Of a DNA stretch of 64,000 nucleotides, positions 896 through 61,716 are shown one piece after another; the first letter of the stretch is position 1; each line of letters begins with the position of its first letter. This DNA comes from Candidatus Latescibacterota bacterium. GTDB taxonomy: Bacteria > Latescibacterota > UBA2968 > GCA-2709665. Both the position numbers and the translations under genes were made by a program. The notes below the pieces were generated by a model. That model was not told the origin of the DNA. It ran no database searches and saw only the letters and a list, made by a program, of their open reading frames with translations. Where the stretch lies: contig OZ252100.1 in the NCBI GenBank assembly GCA_965248435.1, positions 224,001 to 288,000 of the forward strand, written 5' to 3'.

Positions 896-1564
896 ATGAA
901 TTTACGAAGGAACGAAGCCGAAACTTCCAGCTTGAACATCCCCCAGGCGGCAAAAGTGCTTAAAGTAACGGACAAAACGATAAGAAACTACATAGATCGC
1001 GGATTCCTCCGGGCAGAGAAGTGGAACGGTTCCTGGAGAATCGAGAAGGGGACTCTACTGGAACTATACTGGAAAAAATATGGTAATACGATGGAATCAT
1101 CGTCTCTCGAGAGAAATTATGTCCAGGTTCCACTCGGCGAATACGATTGGCTCCAACGGCAGTCCGGTCAGCTTGAGGCCTCAGAGCGCCTTGTGGAAGG
1201 GCTGAAGGCGGATTTGGAGCGCTCCCTGAGCAAAGTCACGGAGTTGGAAGCATCTTCGGCTTCGGGTTGGACAGAGGCCCGTACCCAGCGTGAGGAAAAG
1301 GGAGTCCTCGAAAAGGAGCTGAAGACCGTTCGACGCCGTGAACGGCAGGTGAGTCTAAAGCTACTTGCAAGCTCTGACAAACTGGTGACGATTCGAGCCG
1401 CAGAGCAGGAAGCTCGGAATGAGATTAAGGAGCTCGAGGACGAGAATAGGGAGATGAAAAGGCGGATTGAAACGCAGGAGGGGGAACTGAAGCGGTACGG
1501 TGAAAGGTTAAGGACGAGGAGAAACAGACAAAGGAGGATGTCGAGATTGGGAGATTACTCTTAA
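896..1564 (+). CDS. MerR/excisionase-like HTH protein with long C-terminal coiled coil
   Basis: N-term LNIPQAAKVLKVTDKTIRNYIDRGFLRAEK; E/K/R-rich heptads; AGGAGG RBS. Confidence 0.75.
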   Translation: MNLRRNEAETSSLNIPQAAKVLKVTDKTIRNYIDRGFLRAEKWNGSWRIEKGTLLELYWKKYGNTMESSSLERNYVQVPLGEYDWLQRQSGQLEASERLVEGLKADLERSLSKVTELEASSASGWTEARTQREEKGVLEKELKTVRRRERQVSLKLLASSDKLVTIRAAEQEARNEIKELEDENREMKRRIETQEGELKRYGERLRTRRNRQRRMSRLGDYS

Positions 1565-1954
1565 GGGGGCACAGCAGCATTGAGGGGGCCTGCGGGTCCT
1601 CTTGAGGGGATTCTTCTCGCGAAGATGCCGCAAAATCAACGATGTCCGCGTCTTCAATGTAGGGAGTTGTCGCAACGCGCCGGATCTCTTTCATCTTAAG
1701 GAGGATGTCGGTGATCCTGTGCCCAGCCTCTACAATGTCTGGAGCCGCTCCCGTTCAGACCCATTCGGGTTTGACTTCGCCAGAAGGATGTCCGCCATTT
1801 CCATGATTACTGTCAGCGGCTGGTTGATTTCATGGGCGGCCGCACCGGCCGTTTGGGTCAGCACCCGCAATTTCTGAACCTCGTGGTGTGCCTCTTCAGC
1901 CTGTTTGATTTGTGAGATGTCCTCGGCGATCCCGGCGATATGTCTGAATCTCAC
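1560..1954 (-). pseudogene. Remnant or frameshifted PAC-HisKA fragment
   Basis: GIAEDISQIKQAEE...AAAHEINQPLTVI (H-box) continues after a 1-nt shift at ~1735 as IVEAGHRITDILLKMKEIRRVATTPY..IVDF; N-terminus absent; end approximate. Confidence 0.6.
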
Positions 1955-2100
1955 AAGTTTACATAATGTATCTTATACTCCCTTTCAAGATGTGCCGCCA
2001 CGGGGCCGAATAAACCCCAACATCTTGTGTGCCAGAAATATAGACCAACGCCGTTTTTAAGTCAAGCACGTTTCCGTAACCGCGCCCGAATCAACCAGCG

Positions 2101-2340
2101 TTACGCGAGCTCCTCCAGCGAGGTTTCCGTCGGGGCGGTGGCTTTCGGTTTCGCTGCTGGGGTTCCGGGAATCGGAGAGCTTTCTTCCCACGTCGGATTA
2201 TCGCGGAGAAAACTCTGTGCTGACATACGGTACACTGTTCCATCGTCACAGACAACGATTGTCCACCCGTGTTGGTCCGTAGCGAGCCCGACTGGCTTTC
2301 TCATTTTGCCTCCTCCTATGGGTAGGATGACACTACGCAA
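2101..2340 (-). CDS. Small hypothetical protein (likely start ATG ~2304)
   Basis: ORF with AGGAGG upstream of MRKPVGLATDQHGWTIVVCDDGTVY...WEESSPIPGT. Confidence 0.5.
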   Translation of the reverse strand: MRSVILPIGGGKMRKPVGLATDQHGWTIVVCDDGTVYRMSAQSFLRDNPTWEESSPIPGTPAAKPKATAPTETSLEELA

Positions 2341-2373
2341 AAAAATTGTGGTTGGTTCGGTGCCGAGTGCTTT

Positions 2374-2598
2374 TTATCTCTTGGGTAGGTGGACGATGTC
2401 GCCCACGATGAGAAACCTTTCACCTTTCTGAAAATCAAGACTCATAGTAGGCTTCAGTTCAGCTCCCCTCGCCCAAATGTGGATACCGGCTTCGCCGCCA
2501 TCGCATTGGTATGTTACTCCGGGGTTTCCTTCACCGAAGCACTGTTCGAAGCTACCATTTGTCTGAATCCTCTCGCACCTAATGATTTCATGGTTCAC
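2374..2598 (-). CDS. Small hypothetical protein
   Basis: 74-aa ORF with AAAGGAG RBS before GTG. Confidence 0.45.
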   Translation of the reverse strand: MNHEIIRCERIQTNGSFEQCFGEGNPGVTYQCDGGEAGIHIWARGAELKPTMSLDFQKGERFLIVGDIVHLPKR

Positions 2599-2617
2599 AG
2601 CAGACTCCTTTCAGGGT

Positions 2618-2653
2618 AAAAGAAAAGGAGGGCCCTCTACTTGAGGGCCCTCC
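2618..2653 (-). terminator. Intrinsic terminator, minus strand
   Basis: GGAGGGCCCTC-aagta-GAGGGCCCTCC followed by TTTTCTTTT on the minus strand. Confidence 0.75.
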
Positions 2654-3144
2654 CAACCTCAGTTGCTTAGAATGTAGGTCGAATCCCCATCCCCGTCAAG
2701 GGGCTAGATTCACCCGGTATTCCCCTGCTTTTCCGTGAACTCACCTATGCCTGCGAGGTTGAACCTTGACAAGGATGGCCTCCTGTTCTAGATTCGTTTC
2801 AGAACGTCTGTGATGCCCCCAGGGATAACGACCCGGGGTCCCAGCTTGCGATAAAGACGTAACGGAGTAGCCGTACACTCCCGCCAGCGGGAATGCAGAC
2901 GACCGGGTTGCCACTGCATTTGGCGGCTTAAGAGTCTGCCGACCGAAGGGACCTGGGCAACCTTGATGGGGATTCGTCGAACGCGGCTGAGTAGAGAGGC
3001 CGCCCGATGAACGATCGGACAGGACCCAAGGCAACTCTACGGTTTGGGCTTGCTCGATGCTCTGAACCTACGGCCGTAGGTGTCAGGGCGAAATTGGACC
3101 TCCGAATGCTTTCAAATGGTTCGGGACCGGTCCCGAACTTAATC

Positions 3145-3249
3145 ATGGGAATTATCACAATGATTAGGTTCGAAATCCGGGTCAAGGTGAAGGGAAACTC
3201 AGTCGTCAAGTTGCTATTGGCGATTACAGCAGCCCTCTCGTTGGCCTAA
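3145..3249 (+). CDS. Candidate 29-34 aa hydrophobic peptide (type I toxin-like)
   Basis: (MGIIT)MIRFEIRVKVKGNSVVKLLLAITAALSLA*; stop lies 6 nt before the terminator; no clear SD. Confidence 0.35.
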   Translation: MGIITMIRFEIRVKVKGNSVVKLLLAITAALSLA

Positions 3250-3255
3250 AATGCC

Positions 3256-3293
3256 GGACGGCTGATCGTGCAGATCGGCCGTCCCTTTCTTTG
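3256..3293 (+). terminator. Intrinsic terminator, plus strand
   Basis: GGACGGCTGATC-gtgca-GATCGGCCGTCC-CTTTCTTTG. Confidence 0.7.
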
Positions 3294-3345
3294 TTCCCTA
3301 CTCGGTTTCCCTTGATCTGAGCAGCTCATTGCGCAGTGTCCCCTA

Positions 3346-4020
3346 CTACAATGAGAGCATTTCCAATTCCAGTTTGGCTGTCCTTGCGTGCGACGTGTTT
3401 GAGTAGGTCTTTGTGATTCTCTTCAGAAGAAGGGCCTGTTTCTCCAAATCTCCGGCCAACCCGGAACACCTGGCAGCGTGCCTGAGGGCCAGCGGCGCAT
3501 AGGGCGAAGATTGATATGCATCCGCATAGGCGACGTAACTGGTAATCGCACCTGAGTAATCTTCCCGTTCCTCAAGGCAGGCGGCCACACCTGAAGTAGC
3601 CCCATATCCCAACGCGCCCCCATCGCCATAGGCGGCCAGGTATGTTTCATAGGCGGCCTGTGCCTCGGGAAATCGACCCAGTTCGAAGTAAAGATTTCCG
3701 AGTATGATCGTGGCGTGACCAGCCTCGGGGTTTCCTTTGTATTCAGCCGCGATGCTCTCTGCCTGCAGGATCGCCTCCCCCGTCTTTCCCTGATAGAGCG
3801 CGATCCGGACTTCACCGAACGCATCTATGACTTCATTCGCCTGTGTTTCAGATCGCTGTTGGAACAACGTAGCAATCAGGATGATGACCAGAACCGCCGC
3901 AGCGACCGCCAGGAGTTTAACATACTCCTTTTGGATGTAGCCCCAGATCTTCAGGGCCCAGATCAAGAATTCATCCTGTTTGATCTCTTTTCTGGTCAGT
4001 CGCTTTCTTGCTCTTTGCAT
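3346..4020 (-). CDS. Membrane-anchored TPR protein (YfgM-like)
   Basis: RKRLTRKEIKQDEF N-term, single TM helix, TPR repeats (LGNLYFELGRFPEAQAAYE). Confidence 0.8.
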   Translation of the reverse strand: MQRARKRLTRKEIKQDEFLIWALKIWGYIQKEYVKLLAVAAAVLVIILIATLFQQRSETQANEVIDAFGEVRIALYQGKTGEAILQAESIAAEYKGNPEAGHATIILGNLYFELGRFPEAQAAYETYLAAYGDGGALGYGATSGVAACLEEREDYSGAITSYVAYADAYQSSPYAPLALRHAARCSGLAGDLEKQALLLKRITKTYSNTSHARTAKLELEMLSL

Positions 4021-4169
4021 TTGTGTTGGCCCCTGATCATTGTGTGGCTTCCGCTAGAAGCGTTTATTTTTGTGCTAGTTAGGCTCAATATAGAAAAAAC
4101 CGACAGGGGTGGCAAGGTAAAACAGCCACGGGAAAAGAGTTTCTCTACTTGACGCCTTTCTGGGATAGA

Positions 4170-4203
4170 AAAACCCCCGGGCCATTCGGATAGCCCGGGG
4201 GGA
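4170..4203 (-). terminator. Terminator downstream of flagellin 1
   Basis: CCCCCGGGC...GCCCGGGGG stem with A-run on + (U-run on -). Confidence 0.65.
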
Positions 4204-4230: not shown

Positions 4231-5427
4231 CTACTGAAGCAGTGTGAGCGCGTTCTGCGGGACTGCGTTTGCCTGCGCAAGCAATGCCGTGCTGGACTGC
4301 ACGAGAATTTGATTGCGTGTGAAATCTGAGACCTCTTCCGCGACATCCGTGTCCCGGATGATAGACTCAGAGGCCTGCATGTTCTCGATAGACACGTTGT
4401 TGTTTGCGATCGTGTGTTCAAGTCTGTTTTGCTGGGCCCCGAGGTCTCCCCTCGTCCGGGAGACGATGTCAATCGACAGGTCCAGTGCGGAAATGGCGGC
4501 GCGGGCCCCAAGCAATGTGCTTAAAGATTGACCACTCAGATTCAACGTTGTGCCGCTCGCACTCAGGTCGTTGATATTGAGCTCTACCCGATCTACGACC
4601 TGGGCGTCCGGGCCGACCTGGATACTCCCCCCGACACCTTGATCCACGACGAGTACGCGCCCGTCCAGGTCTCCGTCCCGGTAGCCGTCCGATGCCGGGT
4701 TTGCGCCGGCGGCGGCTCTTCGACCAGACAAGACCAGCTGAATTCCAAGCCTGTCGAAATTCGCGACAACCGACGAACCGGACGCAACCACCCCACCCAG
4801 CGCGTCATTATCCAGCGCCGTCCCGATGTCTATGGTTTGAGAGGCGATCCCGTTGCCGAGTGTAATTTCATTGTCCGCGGTACTGGAGTCGATGAAAACG
4901 TAGGTTCCGGCCTCTGCCGCGGTCAGATTGACATCGACAACCCCGGTTGTTGTAGACGCGGTCGCGCTAGAGACGTCAACATCTTTATTGACCGTGTTTC
5001 CAAAGCCTTTCAATATGGTGTTGTCATTGTAGCTCGTGGAACTCGCGATCCTGTCGATCTCCGTGACCAGCTGAACGAATTCCGCATTGATGGCGTCCCG
5101 GTTGTTGTCATTGACCGTCGAGGACGCAGACTGCACAGCCAGTGTCCGCATCCTGATCAGCATGTCGCTGACTTCGTTCAGCGCCCCCTCAGCCGTCTGG
5201 ATCAGGTTGGACCCCTGCTCTGCGTTCCGGGTCCCCTGGACCAGCCCGCCGATTTGTGCGCGGAAGCCCTCAGATACGGTGAGCCCGGAGGGGTCATCTG
5301 CACCGCGGTTGATACGAAGACCAGAAGATAGCCTCTCTAGATTCGTTCCCAGCCCACGGCTGTTGATACCGAGGTGTCGCTGGGAATTCATGGCCATAAT
5401 GTTGTGGTTTACGATCAACGCCGACAT
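4231..5427 (-). CDS. fliC: Flagellin (paralog 1)
   Basis: LERLSSGLRINRGADDPSGL...QTAEGAL N-term; RGDLGAQQNRL...IRDTDVAEE...LLAQAN C-term; AAGGAGG RBS. Confidence 0.96.
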   Translation of the reverse strand: MSALIVNHNIMAMNSQRHLGINSRGLGTNLERLSSGLRINRGADDPSGLTVSEGFRAQIGGLVQGTRNAEQGSNLIQTAEGALNEVSDMLIRMRTLAVQSASSTVNDNNRDAINAEFVQLVTEIDRIASSTSYNDNTILKGFGNTVNKDVDVSSATASTTTGVVDVNLTAAEAGTYVFIDSSTADNEITLGNGIASQTIDIGTALDNDALGGVVASGSSVVANFDRLGIQLVLSGRRAAAGANPASDGYRDGDLDGRVLVVDQGVGGSIQVGPDAQVVDRVELNINDLSASGTTLNLSGQSLSTLLGARAAISALDLSIDIVSRTRGDLGAQQNRLEHTIANNNVSIENMQASESIIRDTDVAEEVSDFTRNQILVQSSTALLAQANAVPQNALTLLQ

Positions 5428-5520
5428 GCCCAACCTCCTTGTGGGGGGCCTTAGACTACCAGTGTGTGCATCCGTGCTCAGGTCGTCAGTGTATCAAGTG
5501 ATACCAGTTCGTTTGTTTTA

Positions 5521-7899: not shown

Positions 7900-9090
7900 A
7901 TGCCAATCCGTATCAACAACAACATTCCTGCGATTAACTCGCAGCGAATCCTGAATATCACAAACCGGGATGTCAAACTCCGCGTGGAGCGACTCTCCTC
8001 CGGTTTGAGGGTCAACCGAGCGGCAGATGACGCAGCCGGTTTAAGCGTATCAGAAGGACTGCGTGGAGAAATCAGTGGATTTGCTCAGGGCATCAGAAAC
8101 TCTGAACAGGCCATTGACCTGGTGCAGACTGCCGAGGGCGCTCTCAGCGAGATGAGCGCCATCATACTCAGGATGCGTGAACTAGCGGTGCAATCTGCCT
8201 CGTCTACAGTGAATGACCAGAATCGGGAAGCGATCAACGCGGAATTTGCCCAGCTGGTAACCGAAATCGACCGGATCGCTCAGGTGACGAGCTACAACAA
8301 TACCGCTTTGCTGGCTGGGTTCGGAAATACGGTCGATGAAGCTACTTCTTCGGCGGTCACATCCAGTGCAACGACAGGCGTGGCCGATATTCAGATCAGT
8401 GGTGCGGGGGTTGGGAATTACACGTTCATAGATTCTTCTACGGGCGACAACGAAATCACATTGGGTAACGGGGTTGCATCTCAAACAATCGATGTCGGAC
8501 GAGCCCTGGACAACGATGGAGTTAGCGGCGTGGTGGCATCGGGCAGCGCAATCATCGCCAACTTCGACCGCCTCGGAATCCAGTTGACGTTAAGTGGGCA
8601 GCGCGCTGCTCAGGGTGTGACCCCGGCAACCGACGGATATCGCGATGGAGACCTGGATTCGGAAACCCTGGTTGTCAGCCAGGGCGCAGGCGGCGCCTTC
8701 CAGGTAGGGCCCGACGATACAGCGGTGCACCGGTTGCAGCTCAGCATATCAAGTATGCGTACATCTGACACGACTCTGAACCTGAGTGGATTATCGATAT
8801 CGTCACGCGCCTCTGCTCAAGGCGCCATCGGCTCGATCGATAACTCCATCAACCAGCTCAGCCGCACACGGGGTGACCTTGGGGCTATTCAGAATCGCCT
8901 CTCGACAAACATCAAGGCCAACGGGGTGATGCTGGAAAACGACCAGACTTCAGAATCGACGATTCGAGATGCAGACATTGCAGAGGAGGTTACTTCGTTC
9001 GCGCGAGGCCAGATTCTCATCCAGTCGGGTCTTGCAGCCTTCGCGCAGGCCAATATCACAGCCGCAACGGGTTTATCACTGCTCTCATAA
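7900..9090 (+). CDS. fliC: Flagellin (paralog 2)
   Basis: ERLSSGLRVNRAADDAAGL, QTAEGAL, RGDLGAIQNRL, IRDADIAEE; central region clearly homologous to paralog 1. Confidence 0.96.
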   Translation: MPIRINNNIPAINSQRILNITNRDVKLRVERLSSGLRVNRAADDAAGLSVSEGLRGEISGFAQGIRNSEQAIDLVQTAEGALSEMSAIILRMRELAVQSASSTVNDQNREAINAEFAQLVTEIDRIAQVTSYNNTALLAGFGNTVDEATSSAVTSSATTGVADIQISGAGVGNYTFIDSSTGDNEITLGNGVASQTIDVGRALDNDGVSGVVASGSAIIANFDRLGIQLTLSGQRAAQGVTPATDGYRDGDLDSETLVVSQGAGGAFQVGPDDTAVHRLQLSISSMRTSDTTLNLSGLSISSRASAQGAIGSIDNSINQLSRTRGDLGAIQNRLSTNIKANGVMLENDQTSESTIRDADIAEEVTSFARGQILIQSGLAAFAQANITAATGLSLLS

Positions 9091-9614: not shown

Positions 9615-10763
9615 CTACCAATTCGTGAAGGATCCGTCCTCCCGAAACCAGTGCGGGCCCTCCCAGAACTCGAAGGACTCCTTTGCCATATCCTCATTGA
9701 ACTCCACGCCGAGTCCGGGGCCTTCCGGCAAGGGATAAGAACTGCCTTTCAGCCGATGCTGCACCGGGAAGAAGTCATCACCGAACGTAAATTCGTGCTT
9801 CCGGTCTTCAAGCCAGGCGAAGTTGGCGACTGCTGCGCCAAAGTGGATGTGTGCTGCTGTGCTGATCGGTCCAAGGGGATTGTGCGGCATCATATCAATG
9901 TAATGGGCCTCGCTCCAGCCGGCGACCTTCATTCCCTCTGTAAATCCCCCGACGTTGCAGATGTCGATTCTCGCGAAATTGGTCAGCCCCTTCTCGATGT
10001 AGGGCAAGAAGGCCCATTTGCTCGAAAACTCCTCCCCTATCGCCATGGGCGTCCGGGTCATTTGACGCAACGTCGCATAGGCATCCGGAGTTTCGCAACG
10101 AATCGGTTCTTCCAGAAAGTCGAGTGTCCCCTCTGGCATCCGCTGACAGAATGAGGCGGCCTCGGCGACACTCAATCGGTGGTGATAGTCGATTCCGAGC
10201 ACAGGAGCCAACCCCACTTCCTCCCGGACGGCAGCCATCCATTCCGCGGATAGAGCGATGGACTCGCGGGGCTCGAAGCGGTTTTCGTTGTCCTGCGCTC
10301 CGGGGTGCGCAGGCATGAAGCGAATCACGCTCCAGCCTTCCTTGATCAGATCCACTGCCTCTTTGATCACTTCGGGGCCTTCAAGGGGTTTATCGGAGGT
10401 TACAAAGCATGGCACGGCGTGGCGCTGGGCACCGCCAAGCAGTTGATAGACTGGCACATCCAGCTTCCTGGCAACCAGGTCGTGCAGGGCGATGTCGATC
10501 GCGGAAATGGCTCCAGTCAGGATCCGGCCCCCTTCGAAATACTGGCCCCGGTAGAGTTCCTGCCAGAGGGCCCCTATGCGCATCGGATCCTTGCCAAGCA
10601 GAAATTCTCTGAAATGTTTGACTGCTCCGGCCACTGCCAGTTCTCTGCCAGACACCCCGGCTTCTCCCCACCCGTAGTAGCCTTCATCCGTTTCCACCTT
10701 CAAAACAAACTGATTTCTCTTACCCACCCATACGGGATATGACTTGATCTCTGTGATCTTCAT
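9615..10763 (-). CDS. Mandelate racemase/acid-sugar (galactonate-like) dehydratase, enolase superfamily
   Basis: VETDEGYYGWGE, SAIDIALHDL, IDYHHR, FLEEP, IGEE, PHNP, PGLGVE. Confidence 0.9.
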   Translation of the reverse strand: MKITEIKSYPVWVGKRNQFVLKVETDEGYYGWGEAGVSGRELAVAGAVKHFREFLLGKDPMRIGALWQELYRGQYFEGGRILTGAISAIDIALHDLVARKLDVPVYQLLGGAQRHAVPCFVTSDKPLEGPEVIKEAVDLIKEGWSVIRFMPAHPGAQDNENRFEPRESIALSAEWMAAVREEVGLAPVLGIDYHHRLSVAEAASFCQRMPEGTLDFLEEPIRCETPDAYATLRQMTRTPMAIGEEFSSKWAFLPYIEKGLTNFARIDICNVGGFTEGMKVAGWSEAHYIDMMPHNPLGPISTAAHIHFGAAVANFAWLEDRKHEFTFGDDFFPVQHRLKGSSYPLPEGPGLGVEFNEDMAKESFEFWEGPHWFREDGSFTNW

Positions 10764-10801: not shown

Positions 10802-11944
10802 TCACCAGTTTGTGTATGTGCCATCCCGCCGATGCCAGTGAGTGAGCTCCCAGAACTCGTAGGATTGTTTCTGGGCCTCCTCTTCGTTGAATTCTACACC
10901 GAGCCCGGCCCCCTTGGGCAACGGGAATTCCGTTCCTGCCAGCTCGGGCTGGACGGGAAAGAGTTTACGATCGAATTTGCGAGCGAAGGTCTCGAGCCAG
11001 GCAAAGTTGGGGACAGCGGCGCCAAAGTGGATGCCCGCAGCTGTGCTGATCGGTCCCAGCGGGTTGTGGGGCATCATATTTATGTAGTGGGCTTCGCTCC
11101 ATCCGGCCACCTTCATCGCCTCCGTAAATCCTCCGACGTTGCAGATGTCTACCCTTGCGAAGTTTGTCAAACCTTTCTCGATGTAGGGTAAGAAAGCCCA
11201 TTTGCTCGAAAACTCCTCCCCTATCGCCATTGGAAGCTCGGTCATTTGACGCAAGGCAGCGTAGGCATCTGGGGTCTCACAACGGATCGGCTCTTCAAGA
11301 AAGTCTATCGTCCCGGCGGGGAGTCGCTGACAGAAGGAGGCGGCCTCGGCAACATTCAACCGATGGTGGTAGTCGATTCCAAGCACGACGGACGGCCCGA
11401 TCTCCTCACGAACCGCCACAGCCCACTCCGCAATCAGGGCGATCGATTCCCTGGGCTCGAACAGTCCGCTGCCCTCCACGTAGTCCCGGGGCTCCGTGGT
11501 GTATCGGATGATGTTCCACCCCTCCTGGATGAGACGTTTGGTATCGCTTACTGCTTCTGGACCATTCAGAGGCTTCGACGTGATGAAGCAAGGCACAGAA
11601 TCACGCTGGGCTCCACCCAGAAGTTGGTAAACCGGAACATCCAATTTCTTCGCGACAAGGTCGTGAAGCGCAATATCGATCGCAGAAATGGCCCCAGTCA
11701 GGATTCGGCCGCCCTCGAAGTACTGGCCCCGGTATAACTCCTGACAGAGGGCCCCTATGCGCATCGGATCCTTCCCGATGAGAAATTCTCTGAAGTGCTT
11801 GACGGCGCCCACTACACCCAGCTCACGGCTGCATACACCGGCCTCGCCCCAGCCATAATATCCCTCATCCGTCTCCACTTTCAGGACAAGCTGGTTCTGG
11901 TCGCCAACGCGAACGGGATAGGTCTTCACGTCCGTAATTTTCAT
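10802..11944 (-). CDS. Mandelate racemase/acid-sugar dehydratase, tandem paralog
   Basis: Same motifs as the neighbour, long identical peptide stretches. Confidence 0.9.
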   Translation of the reverse strand: MKITDVKTYPVRVGDQNQLVLKVETDEGYYGWGEAGVCSRELGVVGAVKHFREFLIGKDPMRIGALCQELYRGQYFEGGRILTGAISAIDIALHDLVAKKLDVPVYQLLGGAQRDSVPCFITSKPLNGPEAVSDTKRLIQEGWNIIRYTTEPRDYVEGSGLFEPRESIALIAEWAVAVREEIGPSVVLGIDYHHRLNVAEAASFCQRLPAGTIDFLEEPIRCETPDAYAALRQMTELPMAIGEEFSSKWAFLPYIEKGLTNFARVDICNVGGFTEAMKVAGWSEAHYINMMPHNPLGPISTAAGIHFGAAVPNFAWLETFARKFDRKLFPVQPELAGTEFPLPKGAGLGVEFNEEEAQKQSYEFWELTHWHRRDGTYTNW

Positions 11945-55449: not shown

Positions 55450-58040
55450 TTACTTGCTCTCCCATCGGTCAACGAAAACAAGGAAGTCACCGAAATCGAC
55501 ATTTCCCTTCTCATCAAGGTCAAAATCCGGGTTCATCGTCCCAAAATTCTGCTTGAAAACTGGAAGTCTAAGAGGTCCAACGCCGCGTCTTTGTTAAAGT
55601 CGGGTCCCAAAGCTGCACTTGCGGCAAGTGTAATAGCAGTCGGACTCTCTGGGCCGTTGTGGACGATCTCCAGAAGCTCACTAACCGTCCCTGGGATTGA
55701 GGTTTCAAAAGTAACCTCTATCGTCTGCGTTTCACCGGTAAGTATAGAGAATGCTGTGGAAGATACCGTAAAAAGTTTACTGGTCGAGATGATTTCCGAA
55801 ATCGCCAGGTCCGCACTGCCGTGGTTGGATAGATCAAAGGTCAGTTGCCTGGTCTCGTTCAATTCCACATCTCCGAAGTCGAGCGTGCTGACGGATTTGC
55901 TGAGCACTGACTGAACCCCTAAGCCTGAGATGTCTAGTTTGGACAGCCCGCCGGGGCCATCGTGAACCAATGTGATCACGGCCGTAGTCTCTCCCGCGGT
56001 TTGTGGGCTAAAGATGACGGCGATGGTATCGATTTCTCCCCCGGACAATACCAGTGAGTCCACCAACACCGTGAATGCGGAATCGGAGGATTGGATTTGG
56101 GTTATCGCCAGGCTGTCGATGCCCGCGTTGTGAACCGTGAACATCCCAGTTCCGGTGTCTCGGACGGAGACGCTTCCGATGTCCAGAGAATCGGGTGATA
56201 CGGTAATCGAGCGCTGGACACCTGTTCCGGTCAGTGAGACGACCGACGGCGAGCCGGACGCGTTGTGCGCGATCGAAAGCTGCGCCGAATGGCTACCCCG
56301 TGATGATGGAGCATACTCGACCGGCACTTCTTCGCTGCTCCCCGGGTCTACCCGAAAGCTCATTCTAGAGACCGAGAAGCTTGCCCCGTCCGGTCCCGTG
56401 ACGGTGATGTCCGAGATGTCCAACGCGACATTCCCGGGATTCGATACGCTGAGCGGCATGATGACCGTGGACCCGACATTGACCTCATCAAAGGACAAAG
56501 AACCCGGCACAGAAAAGGACGCGGCCATTCCGGTTCCGCTCAAAGTCACTTCCTTTGGGCTTCCAGGTCCATTGTAGTAGATGAGGAGGGACGCGCTTTT
56601 GGGGCCGTAGGATCTTGGCGAAAACCCGACTCCCAGAGGCCTGCTGAACCCTGCGCCCACGCCAAAGTTCACTGCCATGCGCCAGAAATGAGACCTGTCG
56701 GGCCCAGAGAGAACGATGTCGGTTACGGTCAAAGGGGTATTCCCGGTATTTTCGATCGTAAGTTCCTGAGTGACTTCAGCGTCAACGTCCACTTCACCGA
56801 AGTCCAGCGTGGCCGAGATAACGAAAGAAGCGGGTTCCTCAACCACAATAGATCCAGAAGATTCCCCTGATCCAGAAGACTCCCCTGATCCAGAAGATTC
56901 CCCTGATCCAGAAGACTCCCCTGATCCAGAAGACTCCCCTGACCCAGAAGACTCCCCTGACCCAGAAGACTCCTCCGTGCCGCTGCCACTCAGGGCCACG
57001 CTGGTGGGACTGCCCGAAGCATTGTGCGTGATGTCGATAGAAGCTGCTTTGGAACCGAGGGAAGTTGGAGCGAGGGTTACGGTCACGCCGTGACTCTGTC
57101 CTGCAGTTACGGTGAAAGAGGTGGGAGAAGCCGAAAATTCAGCCGCGTCTGTGCCCGATAGGGCGATGTTCGAGACGATCAAATCGGCGTTTCCAGAATT
57201 GGATACCGTGAGTGTTTGGGTGTCGGAGGCACCGACCGCAAGCTCGCCGAAGCTCAGGGAGGGCAAAACGGAAATCGACGGCGCCGCAGCGGTTCCGGTC
57301 CCACTCACAGCCACGCTTGTAAGGCCGGCATGCGCGATGTCGAGAGAAGCGGTTTTGGACGCTGACGAGGTCGGAGAAAAAGTCACGTTTACGTTCTGGC
57401 TCTGCCCTGAGCTCACCGTGAAAGCGGCAGGGGAAACTGAAAACTCCGCTGCGTCCGCACCCGATAGGGTGATGTTCGAGACGGTCAAATCGGAGTTCCC
57501 GATGTTGGACACGGTGAGCGTCAGGCTACTGGATCCGCCTACGGCCACGTTGCCAAAGCTCAAAGAAGAGGAAACTGAGATTATGGGAAGGTTGGTCCCC
57601 CTACCCTTCACAGACACCGAAGTGGGGCTGCCAACAGCATTGTGGGTAATGGAAAGCGTTTCGTTCTTTTGCGCTGGGTTGGTCGGTATGAACGTAACTG
57701 TCACGTCTTGACTGCTCGACGGGGCGACGCTGAGGGTCGTCGTTGAAACGGTATACACTCCGTCGCTGGATGTTATGTCTGAAACATCCAGCGTTGTACT
57801 ACCCGTATTAGAAACGGTGAGGGTCAAAGTGGATGGTTGTCCGATGGGTACAACGCCAAAATCCAGGGTGCCTGGAACAGAGATATCGGGAGCTGCCTCT
57901 GCGGGACTCAGGAGCGGAGCAGTCAGCATCAAGAGGAACAATGATAGAGGAACGGTTACCGGCTTCCAACCGAGCCCTGAATTACGATGATTTTTCGAGG
58001 ATTGACCGAGCGGTAGGTGCTTGAAATCGACTGCTGACAT
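55450..58040 (-). CDS. Secreted multi-ASH (choice-of-anchor D) Ig protein with C-terminal dockerin/EF-hand pair (1-nt frameshift ~55563)
   Basis: About 7 repeats L.FG.V.VG..LTVSN.G..L.VS.I; DFNKDAALDLLDF then, in another frame, VFKQNFG..DFDLDEKGNVDFGDFLVF*. Confidence 0.8.
56851..56976. repeat. 18-nt tandem repeat x7 encoding GESSGS linker
   Basis: GA(T/C)CCAGAAGA(C/T)TCCCCT units. Confidence 0.95.
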
Positions 58041-58048
58041 TCTCTCCC

Positions 58049-58909
58049 TTAATGTCTGACGTTCCAGAGGACGATGAGGTTTGTCACGAGTCGTGCGATT
58101 GCCTTGTCGACGGATATCCGGTCTTTGGAGCTCATTACCAGGGCCTGCAGGATCGTATCTTCCAGCTCTCGAACGTTTCCCGGCCAGGGATAGGCCTGGA
58201 TGAGTATGATCACCTCGGGTGTAATTTCCGGCGAGCGGCATTCGACATCTTGAGCATAGGTCGCCAAAAAATGGCTGGTCAGTAAGGAGATGTCTGCCTC
58301 TCGCTCCCGGAGTGGGGGCAGGTTGATGAGAAATAGACTGAGCCGGTGGAACAGGTCTGAACGAAACTTTCCCAGTTTCATCCGTTCTCGCAGATCGACA
58401 TTCGTGGCCGCGATCAGTCTGAAATCCACCTGAATCGGCTCAGTTCCGTCCACGGGGATCACGACACGGTCGTGGATCGCGAGGAGCAGTCTCTGCTGCA
58501 ATGCAGGGCTCAGTTCCTTGATCCGCTCGAGAAAGAGCGTACCCCCTTCGGCCTGCTCGATCGCACCCGCGAGGCCCATCCCTTCGTGTCCAAACAGCTC
58601 ATTCTCCAACATCGACTCCGTCAGGAGACCGCAGTTGATCGCAACGAAATCCCCTTCGCCACTGCGACTCCGCGCATGGATCGCGCGCGCCACGAGCTCT
58701 TTGCCCGTACCCTCTTCCCCCAGAATCAGCGCTGTGGCAAAACCCTCTTTCAATCTGCGGATCCACCCATGCACGCGCTGCATCTCCTGGCTGACCCCCA
58801 CCAGTCGCTCGAAGGATTCCCGATCGTCCACCTGAGGACCTGCCAGGCAGATATCCCTGGTCTTCCGCCCGACTTCATCCTCTTTCGTTAACAGCATCTC
58901 GATCGACAT
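58049..58909 (-). CDS. Sigma54-interaction AAA+ domain protein, degenerate (no GAFTGA, no obvious HTH)
   Basis: GEEGTGKELVARAIH, ENELFGHE, FRSDLFHRL, WPGNVREL. Confidence 0.85.
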   Translation of the reverse strand: MSIEMLLTKEDEVGRKTRDICLAGPQVDDRESFERLVGVSQEMQRVHGWIRRLKEGFATALILGEEGTGKELVARAIHARSRSGEGDFVAINCGLLTESMLENELFGHEGMGLAGAIEQAEGGTLFLERIKELSPALQQRLLLAIHDRVVIPVDGTEPIQVDFRLIAATNVDLRERMKLGKFRSDLFHRLSLFLINLPPLREREADISLLTSHFLATYAQDVECRSPEITPEVIILIQAYPWPGNVRELEDTILQALVMSSKDRISVDKAIARLVTNLIVLWNVRH

Positions 58910-61640: not shown

Positions 61641-61716
61641 TGGTACCCCTGGCGGGAGTCGAACCCACGACCAACGGATTAGGAATCCGCTGCTCTATCC
61701 TCTGAGCTACAGGGGC
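61641..61716 (-). tRNA. tRNA-Arg(CCT)
   Basis: GCCCCTGTAGCTCAGAGGATAGAGCAGCGGATT-CCT-AATCCGTTGGTCGTGGGTTCGACTCCCGCCAGGGGTACCA. Confidence 0.96.

Follow-up and report, generated by a model that had tools for sequence, protein, structure and literature searches.

A gap of 747 nt (2599–3345) lies between two minus-strand open reading frames (ORFs), s74 (2374–2598) and a gene encoding a membrane-anchored TPR_21/TPR_16 protein (3346–4020; Pfam), in the stretch of a Candidatus Latescibacterota bacterium genome analysed here (64,000 nt, positions 224,001–288,000 of contig OZ252100.1, assembly GCA_965248435.1; hereafter ‘the window’), and it holds a candidate plus-strand RNA. An earlier note, made from the sequence alone, had read 2680–3293 as one highly structured RNA of about 600 nt with its own −10 box and terminator, either a new ornate RNA in the size class of OLE, ROOL and GOLLD or a very long regulatory leader. 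We found that what can be relied on is a simple series of hairpins, with a folded core of the 3′ ~310 nt that falls well short of the 614-nt unit, and that it sits in a strain-specific insertion of ~1.36 kb (1986–3345, no strand assigned), which encloses all features described below between 2101 and 3293: the small genes s67 and s74, a minus-strand hairpin, the candidate RNA and a plus-strand terminator.

The proposed unit consists of two unlike halves. Taken whole, its 614 nt folded with a z-score (z) of −4.53 on the plus strand (0/20 shuffles as stable) and −2.10 on the minus strand. The 3′ half, 2977–3255 (+), forms seven hairpins in the minimum free energy (MFE) structure, at 2983–3003, 3004–3018, 3020–3052, 3059–3089, 3096–3133, 3134–3172 and 3179–3247, in agreement with the consecutive hairpins from 2983 to 3247 described previously; it reached z −4.56 on the plus strand (0/200 shuffles) against −2.04 on the minus strand (5/200). 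The 5′ domain, 2680–2976, gave z −1.82 on the plus strand (11/200 shuffles) and −2.15 on the minus strand (6/200), and so has no strand preference and folds slightly better on the minus strand. The z-score of the whole unit thus derives entirely from the 3′ half; the putative transcript 2801–3293 (+) scored z −5.08 (0/100 shuffles).

We also compared the region with its surroundings, folding the window at 638 positions on both strands (1,276 folds of 300 nt, with energy regressed on G+C). The most stable of all these folds after GC correction was 3001–3300 (+), at z −3.56, and windows within 2701–3000 ranged from −0.2 to −1.6. Second place went to 56701–57000 (−) because of an 18-nt tandem repeat inside a 902-aa ORF, an artefact of coding DNA rather than an RNA; about seven tandem copies of this unit (GGGGAGTCTTCTGGATCA-like) could be seen at ~56850–56990 (−) within the ORF (55533–58241).

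The 3′ half was well defined as well as stable. Its ensemble diversity on the plus strand was 20.8, compared with a background of 64.6 ± 20.3 in which only 2 of 296 windows were as low, and its MFE and centroid structures were almost identical; the 5′ half had diversities of 76.2 on the plus strand and 26.7 on the minus strand. The claim that G–U wobbles favour the plus strand was borne out, with 11 of the 91 MFE pairs of the 3′ half being G–U and the energy asymmetry between strands at 2901–3200 ranking third of 638 positions after correction for G+T content. With DNA instead of RNA energy parameters, 2977–3255 scored only z −2.69 (+) and −1.22 (−), compared with −4.56 on the plus strand under RNA rules. 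The strand preference of the 3′ half is real. Tandem Repeats Finder (minimum score 30) returned no rows over 1500–3500, and a repeat search revealed no direct-repeat family in the region.

The 5′ domain (2680–2976, +) was indistinguishable from chance by z-score, ensemble diversity and an inverted-repeat control. The perfect 12-bp helix said to enclose it, CGAATCCCCATC (2680–2691) with GATGGGGATTCG (2965–2976), is present, but at chance frequency: the window contains five perfect inverted repeats of at least 12 bp within 320 nt, compared with 1.6 ± 1.2 in 30 dinucleotide shuffles, and as the other four have short loops, a single long-range 12-mer is at the level expected by chance. Of the stems nested within it, CCGCCA (2881) with TGGCGG (2921) and AATGCAG (2892) with CTGCATT (2914) are both there, and 2832–2842 with 2948–2957 pairs imperfectly and is unused by the MFE structure. 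The TAGAAT taken for a −10 box does occur at 2668–2673, but it has no −35 partner and was not flagged by our promoter scan. What had been observed is therefore partly confirmed, in that the 3′ half holds up as real and the 5′ domain, with its 12-bp helix, is at chance level.

A terminator does close the unit, as proposed. The strong, U-tailed intrinsic terminator at 3256–3293 (+), called at 3256–3284 by terminator search and evident in the sequence, has a 12-bp stem followed by CTTTCTTTG, with a plus-strand tail of CTTTCTTTGT and a minus-strand tail of GGCATTTTAGG. Three promoter-like sites with at least 8 of 12 consensus matches were found in 2600–3345. The best, TTGACA-17-TAGATT at 2766–2794 (+; 10/12), implies a start near 2801, inside the 5′ domain; the others are ATTACA-18-TAAAAT at 3223–3252 (+; 9/12) and TTGACG-17-TACATT at 2699–2671 (−; 9/12), which faces s74 and s67 and forms a divergent pair with the first. 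On the minus strand, a terminator-like hairpin of 12 bp with the tail TTTCTTTTAC (2626–2654, −; terminator search) lies directly upstream of the s74 ribosome-binding site. This hairpin is very stable, carries a U-run and comes only ~10 nt past the predicted minus-strand start; it could be an attenuator or a 5′ stabilizer.

The absence of a convincing long ORF from the gap was also upheld. It contains three overlapping ORFs, of 80, 93 and 97 aa, about what chance would give at this G+C content. The first of these, ORF80 (3007–3249, +), falls within the array of hairpins and has GAGAGG 7 nt ahead of its ATG; it is the sole Shine–Dalgarno (SD)-led ORF of at least 20 codons on the plus strand of 2660–3300, and its stop codon falls 7 nt ahead of the terminator stem. 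Under a phase-specific Markov codon model trained on 930 long ORFs of this genome, ORF80 scored −0.156 bits per codon and the two minus-strand gap ORFs −0.31 and −0.23, where true coding chunks score +0.20 ± 0.12 (5th percentile −0.008) and spurious ORFs −0.22 ± 0.17. None of the three matched Pfam, PHROGs, PADLOC or NCBIfam, and none was among the called genes of a protein collection that includes the calls for this genome; ORF80 had no relative among 5.8 billion proteins. AlphaFold2 on ORF80, run on the single sequence without an alignment, was uninformative (mean predicted local distance difference test score, pLDDT, 49.9). Judged by these scores and searches, coding by the gap ORFs is unlikely, and ORF80 is probably non-coding; we grade coding no lower than this because the real neighbouring gene s67 also scores as low as −0.21 (in its 79-aa reading).

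The candidate matched no described RNA family. With Rfam 15, no family reached its gathering score in the candidate RNA, the sole such match in the window being a transfer RNA (tRNA) at 61644–61716, and a permissive scan of 2300–3600 gave nothing better than an expect value (E) of 0.76 (20.8 bits, against a gathering score of 47). The earlier note had seen no hallmark motifs of RNase P RNA, transfer-messenger RNA (tmRNA) or group II intron domain V, which agrees with the lack of any match in Rfam (whose families include these RNAs, group I introns, riboswitches, OLE, ROOL and GOLLD) and with the RNase P RNA and tmRNA found elsewhere in the genome, at C1:1134632–1135012 (303 bits) and C1:3129673–3130034 (206 bits), respectively; a divergent copy of either was considered and rejected, neither being detected here. 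ARAGORN found no tRNA or tmRNA in the region, and the tRNA-like ends noticed by eye (GGTCGAATCC at 2677 and GGTTCGAAATCC at 3166) were likewise negative with ARAGORN and with tRNA and tmRNA models. Integron attC sites were looked for by eye and dropped, the hairpin flanks being unlike the RYYYAAC/GTTRRRY cores of such sites.

Alignment to relatives placed the whole gap in inserted DNA. The left edge of the shared sequence is a conserved motif of ~30 nt (GTTTACATAATGTATCTTAT..; 1954–1985, no strand assigned), which shares 97% identity over 32 nt with genome G004 and 90% over 29 nt with G001, a genome of the same genus. It includes the palindrome TACATAATGTA, and its core was invariant in 4/4 aligned sequences, from three genomes of two genera and from metagenome contig L042. 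Its copies (window, 1954–1985; L036, 7445–7473; L037, 2432–2463; L042, about 869–893) lie every time close to an HTH_17 gene or the TPR gene, and it is probably an operator or promoter. The motif also occurs on contigs of a second organism from the same sample and, by eye only, a PAS-like start seems to come after it on the same strand in L042. Abutting it in the window is a 74-aa ORF (1730–1954, −) with a HisKA dimerization/phospho-acceptor segment alone, a truncated histidine kinase.

The right anchor of the insertion is the TPR gene, which is convergent with the candidate RNA and has orthologs in 38/40 relatives; two contigs in the European Nucleotide Archive (ENA) carry a gene for a TPR protein that shares 96% identity with that of the window. 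In G001 the gene order is gcvT, the HTH_17 gene, about 370 nt, the TPR gene and a radical-SAM gene. The motif lies about 25–55 nt from the TPR stop codon in G001 and in L042; the L042 TPR protein is 93% identical to that of the window, and the similarity between L042 and the window stops exactly at the TPR stop codon. Because the motif almost abuts the TPR stop in both, 1986–3345 is, on these alignments, extra DNA relative to G001 and L042, the two nearest relatives examined. In G004 the motif and the TPR gene are separated by two large, unrelated minus-strand genes (363 and 1184 aa; L037 2540–7248). The position is thus variable, and G001, G004 and G002 differ from one another in their content at this site.

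The stretch was found in 4 runs from one sample of one study, none of them listed as RNA, and we regard its assembly as sound because contigs from these runs carried 1200–4200 in one unbroken piece, with 0 differences and no joints. A repeat search detected no flanking direct repeats, attachment-site repeats or terminal inverted repeats around the insertion, and no phage structural, integrase or repressor gene lies near it. The genome contains the gap sequence just once, and a short-query blastn search there gave self matches and chance 14–20-mers alone. A miniature inverted-repeat transposable element with the 12-bp repeats as its ends was rejected, there being no other copy and, by eye, no target duplication; so was a dispersed repeat or repetitive extragenic palindromic element, whose one match in the genome was the region itself.

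The only part of the insertion with relatives is s67 (2101–2304, −), a 67-aa small-protein gene with the SD sequence GGAGGAGG, which is the ORF 2101–2340 (the 79-aa reading) when started at the SD-led ATG at 2304. HMMER identified 33 relatives at E ≤ 1e−3 among 1.84 billion representatives. We aligned the 17 small ones (51–127 aa) and left out 16, these being proteins of at least 286 aa together with three short ones (P0033, P0039 and P0040); among the large ones, P0008 and P0009 are NHL-repeat proteins by Pfam. The conserved pattern RKPVG..VVCDDGSVW..W..PIPGT marks an unnamed family of 50–75-aa proteins, seven small members of which matched no Pfam family. An assignment of the 79-aa reading as a truncated DUF7448 protein was dropped because membership of the 67-aa family accounts for the CDDGTVY motif common to both. 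Members were found on 2 viral contigs and, in several copies, in 2/167 other genomes of the phylum. Beside seven homologous s67-family loci we found no s74-like gene and no DNA resembling the RNA region, and these loci had no consistent structured region in a rough test that borrowed the regression of this window. The second small gene, s74, is a 74-aa orphan ORF with a GTG start and the SD sequence AAAGGAG; it is called as a gene by public sources, has no relative among 5.8 billion proteins and scores −0.19 bits per codon, in the range of spurious or foreign ORFs. Neither s74 nor s67 matched a toxin or defence family in Pfam, PHROGs, PADLOC or NCBIfam.

Further out, the window encodes two flagellin-like paralogs, at 4231–5433 (−) and 7900–9090 (+). 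The first stands here between the TPR and radical-SAM genes and is missing from that position in G001, which is a further sign of a variable neighbourhood. Two adjacent ORFs of ~380 aa, at 9615–10763 (−) and 10802–11944 (−), have nearly identical N-termini (MKIT..VETDEGYYGWGEAG) and look like tandem paralogs.

From the fold statistics, strand bias, terminator, insertion and lack of known relatives described above, we tentatively favour, at rather less than an even chance, an independently transcribed, stable, structured non-coding RNA of ~490 nt on the plus strand, borne by a mobile element. The plus-strand fold of 2977–3255 beats 200/200 shuffles, ranks first of 1,276, is well defined and strand-specific; the terminator follows it directly, and the best promoter-like match in 2600–3345 faces the same way; coding is unlikely, and the region occurs once in this genome and lacks tandem repeats. 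The patchy distribution of the s67 family, which extends to viral contigs, the foreign codon use, the lack of relatives and the absence of the DNA from the syntenic site in G001 and L042 suggest a cassette that is mobile and probably derived from a phage.

On this preferred reading, 1986–3345 would be a cassette acquired horizontally by this lineage alone, probably from a phage or other mobile element, and made of two divergent units. The minus-strand unit would comprise the promoter-like site 2699–2671, the 5′ hairpin and the small genes s74 and s67. The plus-strand unit would run from the promoter-like site 2766–2794, with a start near 2801, through ~175 nt of loosely folded RNA and the seven hairpins of 2977–3255 to the terminator at 3256–3293; this RNA, with the 3′ ~310 nt as its core, would have arrived with the cassette. 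We infer its transcription, start site and action as an RNA from this layout; its most plausible role may be as a regulator or stabilizer for the cassette’s own divergent genes, s74 and s67.

Several observations weigh against this reading. The z of −3.56 is extreme yet no wild outlier, as ~0.2 such values are expected under normality among 1,276 overlapping folds. The promoter is a consensus match of a kind that occurs ~1.2 times per 2.2 kb in shuffles, and the terminator may serve the convergent TPR gene as well, or simply that gene. By layout, an SD-led ORF80 ending 7 nt ahead of the terminator fits a small-protein gene equally well. The RNA region is also without a homolog in the collections searched: its DNA was in 0/60 relatives and had no real match in the 167 other genomes of the phylum, where three matches of 29–41 nt (E 0.006–0.01) were at chance level. 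Sensitive blastn and nhmmer searches found nothing in 24 syntenic loci and, in three 12-kb loci, a match for the 1954–1985 motif only. Phage and plasmid searches gave no match, and the translations of ORF80 and ORF97 drew blanks in genome, metagenome and viral contig collections (genome_contigs, metagenome_contigs and viral_contigs). A covariance model of 3055–3250 (R1), built on a single sequence entered twice, matched only itself in its own genome, gave one match in 100 relatives (17.5 bits, E 0.05) and none below E 0.07 in 7 loci. Without any homolog, the region shows no covariation and no sign of selection, and if the insertion is very recent, there may have been too little time for its folds to come to reflect function in this host. 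At best, then, this is a one-off mobile-element RNA and no new conserved class of large RNA.

The alternative that survives best, and which we consider possible though unlikely, is that the stretch is inert debris: a non-coding leftover of a mobile element (old terminators, processing sites or an operon boundary), brought in with s74 and s67, with no role here as an RNA and with only its last hairpin mattering, as the terminator of the TPR gene. The absence of the region from the nearest relatives and of any kin from the collections searched fits this, as do the chance-level 5′ half, a background-corrected z that is extreme, not overwhelming, and a locus that is both decaying and variable, with its truncated histidine kinase and the differing contents of G001, G004 and G002. 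However, seven consecutive stable hairpins, a strand-specific excess of G–U pairs and a well-defined ensemble would be unexpected of neutral DNA, the signal is stronger under RNA than DNA energy rules, and a promoter-like site and a terminator flank the stretch in the right orientation.

That the plus-strand unit is instead the messenger RNA (mRNA) of ORF80, with a ~200-nt 5′ untranslated region and its own terminator, the hairpins being mRNA structure, seems quite unlikely to us. The SD sequence, unique on that strand, and the stop codon just before the terminator stem are what such a gene would have, and its codon score is at least as good as that of s67, which is a real gene although its composition is foreign. 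That score nonetheless falls within the range of spurious ORFs, the exact ORF is missing from the collection that includes the gene calls for this genome, neither the 5.8 billion proteins nor the three contig collections contain a relative, overlapping ORFs of this size are about what chance would put in the gap, and the gene would have to be the most structured 300 nt of the whole window.

Still less credence goes to the possibility that the plus-strand unit (~2801–3293) represents a family of structured RNAs of ~0.5 kb, borne by mobile elements, from which no other member has yet been sampled, and which travels with phage-type DNA as ROOL and GOLLD do; its relatives would then be missing from the collections only because the phylum is small (168 species genomes) and, like its phages, barely sampled.

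A minus-strand reading, in which 2976 down to 2655 would be a leader or antitoxin-like RNA ending at the terminator 2654–2626 and controlling read-through into s74 and s67 (as an attenuator or in a type III toxin–antitoxin-like manner), is improbable. It would account for the strong minus-strand terminator immediately ahead of the s74 ribosome-binding site, which leaves no space for a promoter in between, and for a 5′ domain at least as well folded on that strand (z −2.15, diversity 26.7). But this z is modest, tandem repeats are absent, no riboswitch or leader family was matched, neither small gene has a match among toxin or defence families, transcription from the only minus-strand promoter-like site would start ~10 nt before the hairpin and so leave no leader, and the plus-strand bias of 2977–3255 would go unexplained.

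We give the least weight of all to the original idea of one ~614-nt ornate RNA of a new OLE/ROOL/GOLLD-like class, started near 2680 from TAGAAT and closed by the 12-bp helix: its listed pairings all exist (that of 2832–2842 imperfectly), the whole unit has z −4.53 on the plus strand and no Rfam match, and its probably mobile setting recalls the phage links described for ROOL and GOLLD in PMC12286853, but its 5′ domain is ill defined and folds slightly better on the other strand, its helix is at chance frequency, its TAGAAT lacks a −35 partner, the best promoter-like site lies inside the 5′ domain, and it lacks any conservation, the property by which those classes are defined. A long regulatory leader or riboswitch fails because no plus-strand gene comes before the terminator or follows it, the next gene being the convergent TPR gene. 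The interpretation in the earlier note is thus partly supported: an unclassified plus-strand structured element with a terminator stands, and both the new large-RNA class and the leader fall.

The value of the analysis is mainly corrective: of the ornate RNA of 600 nt that had been proposed, an array of hairpins spanning ~310 nt remains, in DNA specific to this strain, and the long-range helix with its 12 perfect pairs and the −10 box, convincing as both looked by eye, turned out to be at chance level. As it stands, the find has no bearing on the question of what large RNAs do in bacteria. If transcribed, it would be a clean case of a structured non-coding RNA brought by a tiny mobile cassette into a poorly studied phylum, and an entry point to the phage RNAs of that phylum.

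What defines OLE, ROOL and GOLLD is a complex structure whose conservation over many genomes is backed by covariation; phages and prophages encode ROOL, and during phage lysis GOLLD is expressed at a higher level (PMC12286853). The stretch resembles them in its length of several hundred nucleotides, many stems and lack of coding capacity, and the mobile or phage link would be shared with ROOL and GOLLD. Unlike their multi-stem junctions, pseudoknots and covariation (same source), it offers a plain row of hairpins and no homolog, and both of the nearest relatives examined lack the region at this site. Because it also fails their Rfam models and the long-range domain proposed for it is not significant, it is not a member of these classes, nor demonstrably of that kind.

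A series of hairpins closed by a terminator, close to flagellin genes, also recalls the CsrB/RsmZ sponges. That candidate was rejected: GGA occurs 7 times against 6.1 ± 2.1 expected, 0/7 are unpaired in the MFE structure, there is one ANGGA and no Rfam match. In type III toxin–antitoxin (ToxIN-like) systems, the RNA antitoxin is a tandem repeat array. The succession of a non-coding stretch, a terminator and a small protein gene on one strand, which is the layout of those systems, is seen here on the minus strand, but there are no tandem repeats, the 74-aa s74 matches no toxin family and the structure signal is on the opposite strand.

Phages carry inserted self-contained units (‘morons’), and prophage remnants carry small RNA (sRNA) genes such as dicF. 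The stretch differs from these in having no phage structural, integrase or repressor gene nearby and no attachment-site or terminal repeats, and its predicted RNA, at ~490 nt, exceeds typical base-pairing sRNAs in length and in number of hairpins. It is like them in being a compact unit between a promoter-like site and a terminator, in DNA that close relatives lack, and in adjoining a small gene whose family occurs on viral contigs, with composition and codon use foreign to the host. By analogy, then, the concept that comes closest to it appears to be that of a small, self-contained inserted unit.

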